Source: Alphaproteobacteria bacterium
Lineage (GTDB): Bacteria > Pseudomonadota > Alphaproteobacteria > Rickettsiales > UBA998
Length of the DNA stretch: 64,000 nt
NCBI GenBank assembly: GCA_004292675.1
Contig: RDXO01000015.1
Coordinates: 9,115 to 73,114 of the forward strand
Reading direction: 5' to 3'
The notes under the pieces are model-generated. The model saw nothing but the letters and a program-made list of their open reading frames with translations, was not told the DNA's origin and did not search any database. Within the stretch, counting starts at the first letter, position 1. Each line of letters starts with the position of its first letter. Position numbers and translations under genes: made by a program. Positions 2,892 through 63,988 of this stretch are shown here, one piece after another.

Positions 2892-3843
2892 GGTCTACAT
2901 CCATTCCTGTATCAAACTGATCCGACAAACCCTCACCAATGCCACTCAACTGTGATTGCTGTTGCAGAATCGCTACATCTTCCAATGTGCCAACAATAGA
3001 CACATTGCGCGCATGGAATACCATCATACGATGTACAATAAGTGGCAGCCCTAAACCAAGCGTAATAATGAATAGCCCGATATTACCAAAAAAAAGTTTC
3101 GCATATGCTCCGCCTGTATACGCACCATGAAACCGAATATTGCCCAATGAGAGGTTCTCTAATTTTTTATTGGCAAGGGCGGCACGATACCAAAAACGTG
3201 AAATAAACAAGGTGGGTGCAGCAAGCAAACCTGTGATGATATTTGTTTTCTTCAGCCCCGATATATCCTCAACAAAAACCGCAGCTTGATTGCCAAGGAA
3301 CAGATGATTCATGATATAACTATGTTTCTTGATGTCGCTTTTGGGAATCGCGAAACCAAGCGTGAAGATATTCGCAAACATCCGCCTTATTGCTACGCTA
3401 GCATATTTATACGCATCACCCGTAAGCCGAAGACGAATACCCCTCCATGTCGTGCGCCCTAAGCGATAGCGTAATCCAGAATAACGAGCAATGAAGAACA
3501 GAAGCAACCATACATAATTAAGATAAAATGAATGTGTTACGGTTTCACTATTAGAAATCATAGCTATGATGTATGGTATTCCAGAAAGCAATCCATAGAT
3601 TAACGCTGCAATCACATAACCTTTGAAGATTTCTCCCCCCGTACCCGTGTAGCGTAGAGGATCACCCGCAATAACATAATGAGACCATATATATTTGCGC
3701 ATCCGCGTCTTTGCCCATGCACGGTACACCAATAACGTCACGATCATCAGCAGCAAGTTCTTAATCCATACCTTATAGATCTCACCCTTAGTTCCGCAAT
3801 ATTGCAATAAATTATTCTGAGATACATTACGCTGTTGCTGCAT
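2878..3843 (-). CDS. YjgN/DUF898-family polytopic membrane protein
   Basis: Multiple TM segments and a repeated G-x-GGE-[IY]-[FY] ... Y..WAK pattern typical of DUF898. It is paired with the M48 peptidase, as is often seen for this family. Confidence 0.7.
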   Translation of the reverse strand: MQQQRNVSQNNLLQYCGTKGEIYKVWIKNLLLMIVTLLVYRAWAKTRMRKYIWSHYVIAGDPLRYTGTGGEIFKGYVIAALIYGLLSGIPYIIAMISNSETVTHSFYLNYVWLLLFFIARYSGLRYRLGRTTWRGIRLRLTGDAYKYASVAIRRMFANIFTLGFAIPKSDIKKHSYIMNHLFLGNQAAVFVEDISGLKKTNIITGLLAAPTLFISRFWYRAALANKKLENLSLGNIRFHGAYTGGAYAKLFFGNIGLFIITLGLGLPLIVHRMMVFHARNVSIVGTLEDVAILQQQSQLSGIGEGLSDQFDTGMDVDLGFI

Positions 3844-3932
3844 CCGATGAATCCTTAAATTATGGCTTTTGAAAAAATGATATATCGATTTAGCACGTTC
3901 GGAATAAAATCACAAATTTATTTGTGTGACAA

Positions 3933-4168
3933 CTCACCACCCTTCACATTATGTAAATATTGCACGCTACGCATTCGGTCTTATGCTCTCCCGCCTGCGG
4001 GGGAGCTAGTGAAGCAAGGATTTCTCAAAAGAAATCCGATGCTGAACAGTGGGGGGGCATTCTATCCCCCCACCCAATCATCTGCGGTTTTTCGTTGAAA
4101 AACCTTGATTCTTGGACTCCCCCGCAGACGGGAGAGTAAACCATTCCTACCTCATGAGAGGTGGTGGG
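3933..4168 (+). mobile_element. MITE family 1, copy 1 (~236 bp, five-hairpin non-coding element)
   Basis: About nine in ten positions match the copies at 55905-56143 (reverse orientation) and 63314-63551, by eye. It is flanked by a perfect 9-bp direct repeat, gtgtgacaa, at 3924-3932 and 4169-4177. Imperfect terminal inverted repeats: ctcaccaccc... and ...ggtggtggg. Confidence 0.75.
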
Positions 4169-4200
4169 GTGTGACAATTTTGAGATGGATGCGACTTTGT

Positions 4201-47594: not shown

Positions 47595-48236
47595 ATGATC
47601 GAGCGCATAAAAGAAGATATTCTCGCCTATCTGACGCGTGACCCAGCCGCAACCTCGCGCCTTGCCGTGATTTTGTGCTATCCGGGATTGCACGCTCTTT
47701 GGCTGCACCGTATCGCACATAAGATAGATAAATTCGGATGGCGTATCATAGCGCGCTTTATTGCGATGATGTCACGCTTTATGACGGGCATTGAGATTCA
47801 TCCCAGTGCCATCATCGGACGACGCATCGTCATCGATCATGGGATGGGCGTAGTGATTGGTGAAACAGCAATTATTGGTGATGATGTCACCATCTATCAT
47901 GGCGTGACTCTTGGCGGCATATCGCTACATAAAGGGCAACGCCACCCCACCATCGGTGATGGTGTCATTATTGGTGCAGGCGCAAAAATACTTGGACCTA
48001 TCCATGTGGGGGCGCGGGCGCGTATTGGCTCGAACGCCGTTGTCACCAAAGATGTAGACGAAGATAGCACCATGATCGGAGTGCCTGCCCATTCAACTCA
48101 CGATGTGCGCGTCGCAAGCGATGCTTTTGTTGCCTATGGGGAATGTGTGAGTGAGGGTGAGCGCGACCCTATCTATGCCGAACTCAACGCCTTAAAAGAA
48201 CGGCTGGATGCACTGGAAGCACGCACGACGCTGTAG
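47595..48236 (+). CDS. cysE: serine O-acetyltransferase
   Basis: RDPAA ... TGIEIHPSA ... [13 protein letters not shown] hexapeptide-repeat pattern. Start at MIERIKEDI. Confidence 0.88.
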
Positions 48237-48281
48237 GTTCTGTTGCAAATCCCAATAAATGATAATGTTGATCATTAAAAA

Positions 48282-48408
48282 AGACTTCTGCATAAACCAT
48301 AAAACCAACACATTCGTCATGCCTGCGTAGGCAGGCATCCAACAATAATAGCAGTGATGGATACCAGCCTTCGCTGGTATGACAAGGCTTGAGAGTTATG
48401 CAGAGTCT
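48282..48408 (+). mobile_element. MITE family 3, intact copy (~127 bp)
   Basis: Terminal inverted repeats: agacttctgcataa (48282-48295) and ttatgcagagtct (48396-48408). Two internal 8-bp-stem hairpins (atgcctgc-gtag-gcaggcat and ataccagc-cttc-gctggtat). A related copy lies at 63197-63568. Confidence 0.65.
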
Positions 48409-48420
48409 CTAAAAGAAAAA

Positions 48421-51126
48421 TCACGAAGACTTTTCTTTTAACACCGCATGTGCTGCCGCTAAACGGGCAATCGGCACGCGAAATGGTGAACAAGAAACGT
48501 AATCCATCCCCATCTTATGACAAAAAGCAATGGATGCAGGATCACCGCCATGCTCCCCGCATATGCCAAGTTTAATATCAGAGCGCACGGCTCGCCCACG
48601 CTCACATGCAAGGTGAATCAGTTGCCCTACGCCTTCCACATCAAGCGTCACAAACGGATCATGGTCAAACATACCATGCTTCTTATACGCCCCAAGGAAA
48701 CTTCCCGCATCATCACGTGAGATTCCGAGCGTGGTTTGCGTGAGATCATTCGTACCAAAACTAAAAAATTGGGCATGAGGCGCGATTGCTCCTGCAAGAA
48801 GTGCTGCACGTGGCAATTCAATCATTGTCCCAACCATATAAGGCAATACCTCCTTATGATGCTGCGCCACATCTGCTGCCACCTCGTCAATCGCGTTCTT
48901 TAAGATACGCACTTCATCAGGATGCATCACTAACGGTATCATAATCTCTGGAAGTACAGTGATATTATGTTCGGCACGCACTGCATAGGCTGCCTCTAGG
49001 ATAGCGCGTGCTTGCATCGTATAAATCTCAGGATAGGTAATACCCAAACGGCAACCACGATGCCCCAACATCGGGTTCGCCTCATGCAAGGCATGGGCGC
49101 GTTCCCGAATCCGCTCAATGCTGATCCCCGCATGGTTTGCCACTTCACGCATTTCATGCTCGCTACGCGGTAAAAATTCGTGCAACGGCGGGTCAAGCAA
49201 GCGAATCGTCACAGGCAAGCCATGCATGGCATGGAAAATCCCTATAAAATCTTGGCGTTGCATCGGAAGAATTTTGGCAAGTGCCACTTGGCGTTCTTCC
49301 AAGGTTTCAGATAAAATCATCTGACGCACGGCTATAATCTTTTGTGCATCAAAGAACATATGTTCAGTACGGCACAATCCTATCCCCTCCGCACCAAAAT
49401 TGCGCGCAACTTTCGCATCTTCGGGCGTATCTGCATTGGTGCGAATCTTCAGCGTGCGTACCGCATCTGCCCAGTGCATCAAGCGTTCAAAATCACCCGA
49501 TAAATCCGCTGAAATCGTTGGTACAACACCTTCATAAACATCCCCTGTCGCGCCATCAATCGTGATCCAATCGCCTTCAGAAAATTGATGCGCCCCTGCG
49601 TGCATGGTGCGTGTTTTATAATCAATATGAACGCTGCTTGCCCCTGAAACGCATGGCTTGCCCATACCACGTGCCACCACCGCCGCGTGCGAGGTCATCC
49701 CCCCACGCGCTGTCAAAATCCCTTGCGCCACATGCATCCCATGAATATCTTCGGGGCTGGTTTCAATCCGCACCAATAATAATTTTTCTCCCATTTTGGC
49801 ACGTATTTCTGCTTCATCCGCAGAAAAGACTATGCGCCCAGACGCTGCCCCCGGGGAGGCAGGCAAACCACGTGTGACAAAATGCTTCGGTGCATTCGGA
49901 TCAAGCGTGGGGTGCAGTAATTGATCGAGTGCCAAGGGATCAACGCGCAATAATGCTTCATGTTGGCTGATAAGTCCTTCCTGCGCCATATCAATCGCAA
50001 TTTTCACAGCAGCAGCAGCGGTACGTTTACCTGCACGCGTCTGCAAAATCCACAATTTATGATTTTGTACCGTGAACTCAATATCTTGCATATCTTTATA
50101 ATGCTTTTCTAATAGGGAGCAGGTGGATTCGAGTTGACGAAACACCTCTGGCATGGATTCTTCCATAGCAAGCGTGGTATCTCCTGCTTCTTTCGATGCG
50201 ATGGTCAAAGATTGTGGCGTGCGAATCCCCGCTACTACATCTTCCCCTTGGGCATTAACAAGATATTCACCGTAAAAATGTGCAACTCCCGTGGATGGAT
50301 TGCGCGTAAAAGCAACGCCCGTTGCACAATCATCGCCCATATTGCCAAACACCATTGCTTGCACATTCACCGCTGTTCCCCACGATTCAGGGATATGATG
50401 CAATGTACGGTAGGTGATGGCACGGCGGTTCATCCATGAATCAAACACCGCTAAAATCGCGCCCCATAATTGCTCTTGTGGGTCTTGCGGGAACGGCACA
50501 CCCGTATGCGCTTCGACACGGCTTTTATAATGATCGCATAATTCACGCAAATCATCTGCCGTTGCTTCGGTATCTAACACATAGCCCTGCTCCATTTTGA
50601 GGTTTTCAATCGCATCCTCAAAATAATAATGCGGCACACCAAGTACCACATCGGCATACATCTGGATAAAACGACGATAGCTATCATAGGCAAATCGTGC
50701 ATTCTGTGTGCGCTGCGCAAGCCCTTCGACGGTCACATCATTCAAGCCAAGATTCAATACTGTATCCATCATGCCCGGCATAGATGCGCGTGAACCTGAA
50801 CGTACAGATACTAAGAGGGGATTGCTTGCATCGCCAAAGCGGGCATCAACATCGCGTTCAATGCGGTCAAGAGCTTGAGATAATTGCTCTTTTAACCCAT
50901 GAGGCAGTTGCTTGCCTTGTTCATAATAAGCATTACACACCTCCGTTGTGATGGTGCATCCCGGAGGCACAGGCAAACCAATCGCGCACATTTCTGCAAG
51001 ATTCGCTCCCTTGCCACCTAATAAATTGCGCATAGTAGCGTTGCCTTCCGCCGTACCGCCACCGAAATAATACACATACTGATCATCCTGATGAGGAAGG
51101 TTGGCAGAATTCACGGGTAGGTTCAT
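48421..51126 (-). CDS. ppdK: pyruvate, phosphate dikinase
   Basis: 901 aa with ATP-grasp, phospho-His (GGMTSHAAVVARG) and PEP-utilising TIM-barrel domains. Confidence 0.96.
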   Translation of the reverse strand: MNLPVNSANLPHQDDQYVYYFGGGTAEGNATMRNLLGGKGANLAEMCAIGLPVPPGCTITTEVCNAYYEQGKQLPHGLKEQLSQALDRIERDVDARFGDASNPLLVSVRSGSRASMPGMMDTVLNLGLNDVTVEGLAQRTQNARFAYDSYRRFIQMYADVVLGVPHYYFEDAIENLKMEQGYVLDTEATADDLRELCDHYKSRVEAHTGVPFPQDPQEQLWGAILAVFDSWMNRRAITYRTLHHIPESWGTAVNVQAMVFGNMGDDCATGVAFTRNPSTGVAHFYGEYLVNAQGEDVVAGIRTPQSLTIASKEAGDTTLAMEESMPEVFRQLESTCSLLEKHYKDMQDIEFTVQNHKLWILQTRAGKRTAAAAVKIAIDMAQEGLISQHEALLRVDPLALDQLLHPTLDPNAPKHFVTRGLPASPGAASGRIVFSADEAEIRAKMGEKLLLVRIETSPEDIHGMHVAQGILTARGGMTSHAAVVARGMGKPCVSGASSVHIDYKTRTMHAGAHQFSEGDWITIDGATGDVYEGVVPTISADLSGDFERLMHWADAVRTLKIRTNADTPEDAKVARNFGAEGIGLCRTEHMFFDAQKIIAVRQMILSETLEERQVALAKILPMQRQDFIGIFHAMHGLPVTIRLLDPPLHEFLPRSEHEMREVANHAGISIERIRERAHALHEANPMLGHRGCRLGITYPEIYTMQARAILEAAYAVRAEHNITVLPEIMIPLVMHPDEVRILKNAIDEVAADVAQHHKEVLPYMVGTMIELPRAALLAGAIAPHAQFFSFGTNDLTQTTLGISRDDAGSFLGAYKKHGMFDHDPFVTLDVEGVGQLIHLACERGRAVRSDIKLGICGEHGGDPASIAFCHKMGMDYVSCSPFRVPIARLAAAHAVLKEKSS

Positions 51127-55631: not shown

Positions 55632-55904
55632 AAAATTTTTGAACCCTATCTTTCTTATAGAAATGAACGCATAGAAAGCACGACTATATACCCATTTTAC
55701 TTCAAGGAGTTGAGTCCTTGACGTGAAATTAAGGGTATATCTTATTAAAGATACTCATCGTTTCCACATTTTGATACTACGTATCTTCATGCGCGATGAG
55801 TATAGTAGCTTTTTATACATCACGCAACGACTTAATATAAAAAAGTTAGGGTGCTTGATTTTTTATGCAGTCGTCCAGCCATTAATCTCAGGAAAATTAC
55901 TTAG

Positions 55905-56143
55905 CTCACCATCCCTCATGAGATATGAATGGTTTACTCCCCCGCCTGCGGGGGAGTCCAAGAATCAAGGCTTTTCAACGAAAAACCGCAGATGATTGGG
56001 TGGGGGCGAATAGGATACCCCCCCCACGGTTCAGCATCGGATTTCTTTTGAGAAATCCTTGCTTCACCAGCTCCCCCGCCTGCGGGGGAGCATAAGACCG
56101 AATGCATAGCGTGAAATATTTACATAATGTGAAGGGTGGCAAG
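55905..56143 (-). mobile_element. MITE family 1, copy 2 (reverse orientation, 239 bp)
   Basis: Flanked by a perfect 9-bp direct repeat, attacttag, at 55896-55904 and 56144-56152. Internal sequence is collinear with copies 1 and 3. Confidence 0.8.
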
Positions 56144-56198
56144 ATTACTTAGTTTTTGCGCTAGACAGATTATCAAAAAAAGCCTATAAATTGATTCC

Positions 56199-61872: not shown

Positions 61873-62571
61873 CTATAATGTTATCGTGCCATCAAAAACA
61901 CTATGCAATTTCGGGCTATGCAAGATGCTTGCAGGGGTTACCGTTTCCCGCTCCCACGGAATTCTCCCAAAATACCATATGCGCCAAAATAATAAATCTG
62001 CTTTCGGATTATTCGTCAACAGGGTGCGCATATTTTCTATTGTACCTAGCTCAATATTCAATGCTTCACTGACAACTTCATGCACATAGCGCGAGCAAAA
62101 TTGTTTGCGTGAATGCAGGTTAAAGCCTGTATCGTACCACCGCCCTAATTTTTTATTGGCCGCCTCTTTAATGGCTGCTTGTTGCGCCGTTGAAAGTGGA
62201 TCATGCAAGCGTTTGATTGCGACGCGATGATCTTTGGATCGTTTGAGGAACTTAGAAAATGGCGTCGTGGTAGAACGGGGGAAGGTACTTTCCGCCACGA
62301 TGGGTTCATCACCCGCAACATCAATAATGATCCCCACATGGTTTGTCCAACTTTGCGTATCTTTGGCTATTTTACGAAAAGGCAAAATATCAATATGAAT
62401 AAACACAATATCACCAACACGCAGTTCTTTTGATAAACTATCGATATGCATCTTATCCTCTCGATTATAATGTAGCGTTACCGCTCCGATTTCACGCGAT
62501 TCCGATGCATGAGCCAAGGGGGAGAGCATAAGCACGGTGAGTGCCAAAATAAATGATAGGATGTATTTCAT
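61873..62571 (-). CDS. secreted YiiX-like permuted papain/NlpC-P60-fold hydrolase
   Basis: GDIVFIH ... WTNHVGIII (His) ... QFCSRYVHEV (Cys), in the permuted order typical of YiiX/DUF830-like enzymes. Its N-terminal 32 aa are identical to those of the divergent creA-like gene. Confidence 0.7.
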   Translation of the reverse strand: MKYILSFILALTVLMLSPLAHASESREIGAVTLHYNREDKMHIDSLSKELRVGDIVFIHIDILPFRKIAKDTQSWTNHVGIIIDVAGDEPIVAESTFPRSTTTPFSKFLKRSKDHRVAIKRLHDPLSTAQQAAIKEAANKKLGRWYDTGFNLHSRKQFCSRYVHEVVSEALNIELGTIENMRTLLTNNPKADLLFWRIWYFGRIPWERETVTPASILHSPKLHSVFDGTITL

Positions 62572-62583
62572 GATCGTGTGATA
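62477..62583. repeat. left arm of the 107-bp inverted repeat
   Basis: Its reverse complement equals 62674-62780 at 106 of 107 positions (mismatch at 62576/62681). It covers 12 nt of 5-prime UTR plus codons 1-32 of gene 61873-62571. Confidence 0.95.
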
Positions 62584-62673
62584 GTTTGTTCATATTATTC
62601 CTTTATAGCGTGTTCACAAGCAAAATCATAGATAATTTGTATAATTTTTCTTGTATTGTACTCTAGTACAAGG

Positions 62674-62780
62674 TATCACATGATCATGAAATACATCCTA
62701 TCATTTATTTTGGCACTCACCGTGCTTATGCTCTCCCCCTTGGCTCATGCATCGGAATCGCGTGAAATCGGAGCGGTAAC
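62674..62780. repeat. right arm of the 107-bp inverted repeat
   Basis: See the left arm. It covers 12 nt of 5-prime UTR plus codons 1-32 of the creA-like gene. Confidence 0.95.
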
Positions 62781-63198
62781 AACGGGGTTTAAGATCATCG
62801 GGCCAAATCATAAAATTGCTATTGTTGCCTTTGATGATCCCAAAGTCAAGGGGGTTACGTGTTACGTAGCGCGTCCGAAAACGGGCGGGATTAAAGGTGG
62901 GCTAGGTCTTGCCGAAGACCCGTCAATCGCAAGTGTTTCATGTGTTCAAACAGGTGTGATTACTTATATTCGTCCTATTGAAGCCGATGAGAATGGCGAA
63001 GAAGTGTTTGATGAAAACCGCTCACTGATTTTCAAATCCCTTGAAATCATACGATTATTCGATAAGGTTACGCATAGTTTGGTGTATGTAGTGCGCACAC
63101 ATCGCGTGATTGAAGGTTCTCCCGATACATCCATATCGGTGGTCGCCCCTATGGCATGGAATGGCACTCCGCCACAAAAGCCTTTACTCGATGATTAG
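62686..63198 (+). CDS. creA: CreA-family periplasmic protein
   Basis: FKIIGPNHKIAIVAFDDPKVKGVTCYVARPKTGGIKGGLGLAEDPS is the CreA signature. Start set at MKYILSF (signal peptide ...PLAHA/SES); the track ORF begins 10 codons upstream. Confidence 0.85.
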   Translation: MKYILSFILALTVLMLSPLAHASESREIGAVTTGFKIIGPNHKIAIVAFDDPKVKGVTCYVARPKTGGIKGGLGLAEDPSIASVSCVQTGVITYIRPIEADENGEEVFDENRSLIFKSLEIIRLFDKVTHSLVYVVRTHRVIEGSPDTSISVVAPMAWNGTPPQKPLLDD

Positions 63199-63568
63199 AG
63201 CGGCATTACATCTATTGGTCATACCGGCGAAGGCTGGTATCCATAAACGACTAGCGTTACTGGATTCCTGCCTAAAGCAGGAATGACAAATGTGGTGGTT
63301 TTATGGGTTATACCTTGCCACCCTTCACATTATGTAAATATTTCACGCTATGCATTTGGTCTTATGCTCCCCCGCAGGCGGGGGAGCTAGTGAAGCAAGG
63401 ATTTCTTAAAAGAAATCCGATGCTGAACCGTGGGGGTGCATTCTATTCACCCCCACCCAATCATCTGCGGTTTTTCGTTGAAAAACCTTGATTCTTGGAC
63501 TCCCCCGCAGGCGGGAGAGTAAACTATTAATGTATCATAAGGAGTGATAAGGGGCTATGCAGAAGTCT
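63197..63568 (-). mobile_element. MITE family 3, second copy, interrupted by a MITE family 1 insertion
   Basis: The hairpins (ataccggcgaaggctggtat, attcctgcctaaagcaggaat) and the right terminus tatgcagaagtct match the reverse complement of 48282-48408. The left terminus is degenerate and abuts the creA stop codon. Confidence 0.6.
63314..63551 (+). mobile_element. MITE family 1, copy 3 (nested in MITE family 3)
   Basis: Collinear with copies 1 and 2. Flanked by gggttatac (63305-63313) and gggctatgc (63552-63560), a 7 of 9 direct repeat. The uninterrupted family-3 copy has a single ggtttatgc at that point. Confidence 0.75.
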
Positions 63569-63988
63569 CTATATATGCAAGTGAAAATAGCTCATGGATG
63601 GCACACGGGCATATTTCATGACATCGCGCTCTTCAAGATAGGTGACAGAATTATCGCGTGCATTGCTTAAGCGTATAATAAAACGTCCGTGCGTATCTTT
63701 GAAAATCGTAAAACGTCCCTCACCTATTCCATAGACATCGCGTACTTTCTGCTCACGCATAATTTGTTCCAAATAATGCATACGGCGCATATCAATATGT
63801 TTGAACATATTTTCTTGAATCGCGCTAATGAGAACGGGTTCATCGCTTACATCAGATTTTTTCACAGGCGCAGTCACAGCTAGTTTGGGAGTGTTGTACA
63901 CCTCATTCGTAGCTTGTTTATTCTGAGTGGTGAGCGCGCTTAGTTCCATACTATGCTCCTTCGGTGCATATGCTATCATTAGAGGCAA
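63569..63988 (-). CDS. hypothetical protein
   Basis: 139-aa ORF whose stop codon abuts the MITE terminus. No family confidently recognised. Confidence 0.45.
   Translation of the reverse strand: MPLMIAYAPKEHSMELSALTTQNKQATNEVYNTPKLAVTAPVKKSDVSDEPVLISAIQENMFKHIDMRRMHYLEQIMREQKVRDVYGIGEGRFTIFKDTHGRFIIRLSNARDNSVTYLEERDVMKYARVPSMSYFHLHI

Follow-up and report, generated by a model that had tools for sequence, protein, structure and literature searches.

Insertion of a 238-nt family-1 MITE, with a 9-bp target-site duplication, into an older family-3 element between creA and ORF126 of an uncultured alphaproteobacterium

Two mobile elements, one inserted within the other, lie between the converging genes creA and ORF126 in the metagenome-assembled genome of an uncultured alphaproteobacterium. 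We analysed a 64,000-nt stretch of this genome (hereafter, the window) and found that a miniature inverted-repeat element (MITE) of family 1 interrupts an element of family 3, that both breakpoints coincide with a 9-bp duplication and that the host element is the older one. A first-pass annotation, made from the letters of the window alone, had described the flanks of the family-1 copy as two pieces of one family-3 element, and the pairwise alignment and the gap-free excision described below bear this out. It had placed the composite at 63197-63568: the position was correct, but the true span is 63198-63569, one base off. The coordinates of the elements and their flanks are listed in Table 1. 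For comparison we used RDZH01, the metagenome-assembled genome of Alphaproteobacteria bacterium isolate PH2015_06S_46_36. Because its coding flanks are 87-97% identical to those in the window, RDZH01 looks like a related species and not another strain; it is called the sister species below.

Table 1. Positions of the family-1 and family-3 elements, their duplications and the adjoining gene ends in the window
Feature	Position	Strand	Remarks
Family-1 copy 1	3933-4168	+	236 nt; perfect 9-bp duplication GTGTGACAA / GTGTGACAA (3924-3932, 4169-4177)
Family-1 copy 2	55905-56143	-	239 nt; perfect 9-bp duplication CTAAGTAAT / CTAAGTAAT on the element's strand (55896-55904, 56144-56152)
Family-1 copy 3 (inserted, younger MITE)	63314-63551	+	238 nt, from the three-copy alignment; flanks GGGTTATAC / GGGCTATGC, 7/9 identical
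Family-3 window copy A (uninterrupted; paralogous 'empty site')	48281-48409	+	Between cysE and ppdK; then TA
TA flank, creA side	63196-63197	+	
Stop codon TAG of creA	63196-63198	+	Flanking TA + family-3 terminal G
Family-3 larger piece	63198-63304	-	Degenerate right inverted repeat, both REP-like hairpins and sub-terminal segment
Target-site duplication, left copy	63305-63313		GGGTTATAC; belongs to the family-3 sequence; 1 base off consensus GGGTTATGC
Target-site duplication, right copy	63552-63560		GGGCTATGC; 1 base off consensus; 7/9 against the left copy
Family-3 remainder	63561-63569	-	9 nt of the left terminal inverted repeat; AGAAGTCTC on the + strand
Stop codon TAG of ORF126	63569-63571	-	Flanking TA + family-3 terminal G
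TA flank, ORF126 side	63570-63571	+	
ORF126	63569-63949	-	Orphan ORF, 126 aa

The evidence for nesting is a comparison of the filled site with an uninterrupted copy of the same element. When 48260-48430 was aligned pairwise with the reverse complement of 63180-63590, a single block of about 247 nt, present only at 63.3 kb, interrupted an otherwise colinear match. The copy at 48282 runs uninterrupted, as the first-pass annotation had stated, the flanks at 63.3 kb are homologous to it and the duplication coincides with the breakpoint. In a BLAST search within the window, 63218-63311 and 48292-48383, on one side of the block, matched at 82% identity over 94 nt, and 63556-63568 and 48282-48294, on the other side, shared an exact 13-mer, AGACTTCTGCATA. 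This block is one of three copies of a repeat; the others lie near 3.9 kb and, in reverse orientation, near 56 kb. It should be mentioned that the empty site at 48281-48409 is a paralogous copy at a locus other than the insertion site.

We then removed the family-1 element together with either one of the two 9-mers in silico and aligned the remainder with other family-3 copies, namely the intact window copy A, the sister-species copies L027a, L068a, L067a and L001a (both ends recognisable) and partial copies. This excision restores a family-3 element of 125 nt, at full length and in register, and in the alignment with six other family-3 copies the restored copy crosses the junction without a gap, as seen against window copy A, L027a and L068a. 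At the junction, window copy A reads ...CTGCATAAACCATAAAACC..., L027a reads ...CTGCATAACTCATAAAACC... and L068a reads ...CTGCATAACCCTTACAACC..., while the restored copy reads ...CTGCATAGCCCATAAAACC... or ...CTGTATAACCCATAAAACC..., depending on the 9-mer that is kept. The family-3 consensus at the target site is GCATAACCC, as in L068a (reverse complement, GGGTTATGC), and the uninterrupted copies have GCATAAACC, GCATAACTC or GCATAACCC at this site. Because each flanking 9-mer is one substitution away from the consensus, the two 9-mers differ from each other at two positions. The single 9-mer of the intact copy had been equated with the two flanking 9-mers; this correspondence holds, but the 9-mer at 48282, GGTTTATGC, is itself a variant of the consensus GGGTTATGC.

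The ends of the family-1 element were fixed by alignment of its three copies within the window and by their exact coordinates. The imperfect pair of 9-mers at 63.3 kb stands in exact register with the perfect 9-bp repeats at the other two copies, and the probability of at least 7 matches in 9 by chance is 0.0013. Accordingly, a 9-bp duplication accompanies family 1 in 3/3 copies (two perfect, one 7/9), exactly at the breakpoints, in agreement with the transposition mode proposed at first. All three copies start with CT(T/C)(G/A)CCACCCTTCAC and carry an imperfect inverse at the other end; the 63.3-kb copy has CTTGCCACCCTTCAC... and ...GGAGTGATAAG as terminal inverted repeats, and its right end reads CTCACCATCCCTCAT when reverse-complemented. 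The element is small (236-239 nt) and has no transposase gene; the sole ORF inside it is a frame of 62 codons that runs through the G+C-rich hairpins with which the interior is packed. Over their full length the three copies share 89-92% identity; a stretch of 123 nt reaches 98% between two of them. A terminal 20-mer of family 1 had no match in the metagenome scan; a 109-nt right-end fragment was found in the sister species, at locus L068. Because family 1 lacks coding capacity of its own, it must have been moved by a transposase acting in trans, and we infer a cut-and-paste enzyme that makes 9-bp staggered cuts. The length of the duplication fits IS10/IS50-like enzymes of the IS4 family and also some enzymes of the IS5 group. 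In this way the confirmed duplication points to the class of transposase that moves family 1.

Because family 1 is nested inside, it arrived later than the family-3 copy that hosts it. In addition, family-3 copies are only about 65-80% identical, with boundaries of the sister copies that are approximate in this comparison, as against 89-92% for family 1; therefore family 1 is the younger family. Both observations agree with the earlier proposal that family 1 was active after family 3. The composite is very probably explained as follows. An element of about 125 nt, in which 15-nt terminal inverted repeats, (TA)GAGACYTCTGCATAA, enclose two inverted REP-like hairpins, would have settled between converging creA and ORF126 with TA on each side. 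Later, the 238-nt family-1 MITE would have inserted 9-18 nt inside the left end of family 3. Fill-in of a 9-bp staggered cut at GCATAACCC would have produced the flanking duplication, whose two copies would since have gained one substitution each. Some points stand against this explanation: no orthologous empty site was found, the sole close relative at hand having another element at this locus, the 9-mers at 63.3 kb differ at 2/9 positions while the other family-1 duplications are perfect, and the right inverted repeat of the 63.3-kb family-3 copy is degenerate (TAATGCCG-CTC against TTATGCAGAGTCTC). Both families occur in the sister species, family 3 at several loci and family 1 as the fragment mentioned above. 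A nested insertion is in itself an ordinary, textbook event for bacterial mobile DNA; here it cleanly orders two repeat families in time, in an uncultured alphaproteobacterium with a small genome.

The class of the host element is less clear than that of the insert. Family 3 consists of 15-nt terminal inverted repeats, GAGACYTCTGCATAA, sub-terminal arms and a core of two inverted hairpins. The terminal repeats are conserved in at least six copies from two species. The hairpins have the form GTCAT-NCCNGC-loop-GCNGGN-ATCC and lie about 20 nt apart, and their stems covary between copies; the hairpin at 63218-63242 is an exact match to GTCATNCCNGCNNNNGCNGGNATCC. Copy A folds at -47.7 kcal/mol with a z-score of -5.4. 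Counted by eye, TA follows the right end in 5/8 family-3 copies and directly abuts a recognisable left inverted repeat in 2/6 (WinB and L067a). Rfam contains no family that matches family 1 or family 3; the search gave just two microRNA hits at chance level.

A 20-mer of the second hairpin, ATACCAGCCTTCGCNGGTAT, occurs in at least 119 genome stretches from many phyla in a scan of one genome per species. Our own estimate from the size of the collection and the length of the pattern puts the chance expectation at about 4. Among the matches listed are Alpha-, Beta-, Gamma- and Deltaproteobacteria, Dehalococcoidia, Elusimicrobia, Peribacteria and others, with isolates such as Sandarakinorhabdus glacialis and Tahibacter soli. 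The 20-mer usually lies in an inverted pair, GTCAT...ATCCAG, then about 20 nt, then CTGGAT...ATGAC. The hairpin pair is a cross-phylum module like REP/REPIN sequences. Tandem arrays of about 11 units, with a period of 115 nt and two hairpins per unit, were also observed (L079 5142-6474; further arrays in L119, L120 and L019); their hosts are an uncultured gammaproteobacterium and a Luteibacter MAG.

These features raise the question of whether family 3, instead of being a MITE driven by a transposase, is a REPIN that has conserved outer arms and is copied by a RAYT tyrosine transposase. The core has two inverted REP hairpins less than 130 bp apart, as in REPINs, and its architecture is the same as that of the hairpin seed of Neisseria REPIN/dRS3, ATTCCCGCGCAGGCGGGAATC (Bertels and Rainey, bioRxiv 10.1101/2021.07.10.451892); it shares with REPINs the variable spacer and the location outside genes. 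The covariation of the stems and the excess of the exact 20-mer, usually as an inverted pair, also favour this reading. However, in the window the hairpins occur solely inside family-3 copies (48359-48383 and 63218-63242) and never alone. Moreover, unlike REPINs, family 3 adds the sub-terminal arms and, outside the hairpins, the conserved 15-nt inverted repeats, usually followed by TA. We therefore regard copying by RAYT as a possibility that is open to considerable doubt. If it were true, the nesting of family 1 would still hold, the host element would belong to another mobility class and its TA flanks would reflect a preference for that sequence instead of a duplication. Because the core is a REPIN-like doublet of REP hairpins, family 3 is classified as a MITE less securely than family 1. 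In our description, family 3 is a REPIN-like core within a MITE-like shell, and either a DDE transposase or a RAYT may move it.

In the sister species the gap between ORF126 and creA carries a different element. ORF126 was found on six public contigs, among them those of the sister species and one Logan contig with the allele of the window; homologues outside these two species were not found, and an exact CreA look-up for the orthologous locus gave no match. Thus, an orthologous empty site at ORF126-creA was not found by the ORF126 and CreA look-ups. The gap in the sister species measures 221 nt and holds a TA-flanked element, X (L001 3382-3602), which begins directly after the same CACTTGCATATA-TA as family 3 in the window. 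Because X or family 3 follows the same TA, the stop codon of ORF126 is TAA (TA+A) in the sister species and TAG (TA+G) in the window. X ends in AGCTGAGTTTTGGATAAG and its inverse, and its inverted repeat agrees with that of family 3 at 11/16 positions in a hand alignment. The arms of X exceed those of family 3 in length and do not align with them. The two-hairpin core is the same, and 25 nt of its first hairpin are identical in X and window copy A. A 10-bp direct repeat around X, TATATAAGCT, was considered as a target duplication and dropped, since L134 shows that AGCT is the element end and that TA forms the flanks. At L134 1700-1862, a left arm of the X type and a right end of the family-3 type enclose the same hairpin pair. 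This hybrid suggests that arms were exchanged between subfamilies. From the related inverted repeats, the common core and the hybrid, X and family 3 are subfamilies of one group.

The two species may have gained their elements independently at the TA between ORF126 and creA, or one element may have replaced the other. The sister species keeps AGCTC-TA beside creA, which corresponds to the last bases of the family-3 copy in the window; this could be a relic or chance. It is conceivable, but unlikely in our estimation, that the stop-codon TA between these converging genes is a recurrent landing pad, which received family 3 and then family 1 here and X in the sister species; the L134 hybrid is a third copy. 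If so, a cross-phylum REPIN-like hairpin pair would be carried by, and shuffled between, MITE shells of the inverted-repeat type, and this would link two mobility systems that are commonly kept apart. The hairpin core found in many phyla and the different group members at the same TA in close relatives are more useful leads than the nesting itself, and this genus may be suited to studies of the combination and turnover of REP-type hairpins and inverted-repeat-type MITEs.

At the locus of copy A, the sister species shares the flank up to CATTAAAA and then diverges, which confirms the left boundary of the family-3 copy. Comparison of window positions 48236-48423 with L125, L131 and L132 showed that the sister species has an extra gene of 181 aa between ppdK and cysE and that the last codons of ppdK differ (…VLKAEQ* in the sister species, …VLKEKSS* in the window). 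Because of the extra gene and the different C-terminus, there is again no clean empty site: with the other sequence and the contig breaks in the sister species, the comparison gives the left boundary only. Copy A sits at the junction of this cysE-ppdK rearrangement. Elsewhere in the sister species, L068 2992-4018 is a repeat cluster in which a palindromic repeat of family 2 (2992-3088) abuts a family-3 copy (3091-3224), with the family-1 fragment 700 nt further on.

Clusters of this kind, with family-2, family-3 and partial family-1 copies within 1 kb, and the exchange of arms between family-3-type elements, as in the L134 hybrid, might suggest that the family-3 halves and family 1 at 63.3 kb form one compound unit or arose by recombination between separate copies. 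To this idea we give very little weight. A search of the window and of about 50 kb of sister DNA gave no second composite, both breakpoints fall on a 9-bp direct repeat, as long as those at two independent family-1 insertions, and excision gives back a complete family-3 copy in register. In practice, a compound or recombinant origin is refuted by the duplication and by this register. An assembly artefact, in which the assembler joined two contigs through the shared family-1 repeat, might be suspected in a metagenome-assembled genome and from Logan contigs that end inside these repeats, but such a mis-join appears very unlikely, indeed close to negligible: the sequences that border family 1 complement each other as halves of a single family-3 element, and their 9-mers match, the adjacency of ORF126 and creA in the sister species too argues that the contig is not mis-joined, and the ORF126 / family-3 / family-1 junction is independently present in the Logan assembly of run SRR7244341 (L003, a contig that ends within family 1) and so is not peculiar to one assembly. 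The insertion of family 1 into a pre-existing family-3 copy is the reading that we retain.

MITEAba12 and ISAba12 are an example of MITEs that are derived from insertion sequences of the IS4 or IS5 family and that produce 9-bp duplications. Like such elements, for instance MITEAba12 of Acinetobacter (mentioned in PMC10969869), family 1 is short and non-coding and has inverted repeats, 9-bp duplications and several copies; it differs in being longer (238 nt) and packed with G+C-rich hairpins. The insertion of mobile elements into MITEs is already documented in Coxiella burnetii, where IS1111 is inserted in copies of QMITE2 (Wachter et al. 2018, PMC5896051). In that case the missing bases of the MITE were found on the far side of the insert and the nesting was used to order events, IS1111 was site-specific for the MITE (20/21 copies) and the MITEs overlapped the 3′ ends of genes by a few bases (PMC5896051). 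The composite described here is similar in that a mobile element lies within a small palindromic MITE that overlaps gene 3′ ends by a few bases, in that the remaining bases of the host element stand beyond the insert and in that the nesting gives the order of events. In contrast to the full insertion sequence in Coxiella, the insert is a non-coding MITE. Moreover, because only one of the three family-1 copies in the window lies in family 3, no targeting like that of IS1111 is shown. A literature search for nesting of one MITE in another in bacteria yielded, within the collection searched, only plant and fungal papers. The Correia elements of Neisseria are small, palindromic, TA-flanked MITEs at gene ends and between converging genes. 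Family 3 resembles them as a small palindromic element that, at 63.3 kb, has TA flanks and lies at gene ends between converging genes, but it has no sequence similarity to them, and duplication of TA by family 3 is only suggested.

Because the family-3 copy at 63.3 kb is bordered by TA on both sides, the TAG stop codons of creA and ORF126 are each composed of the flanking TA and the terminal G of the element. The composite fills the whole intergenic gap, as had been noted at first. It forms a dense set of hairpins (-146.7 kcal/mol, z-score -7.2 by folding), including one terminator-like hairpin with a T-run; a role of the composite in ending both converging transcripts is a conjecture. Elsewhere in the window, 62477-62589 and 62668-62780 form an inverted repeat of 113 nt that is 97% complementary, by which creA and its divergent neighbour obtain the same start and signal peptide.
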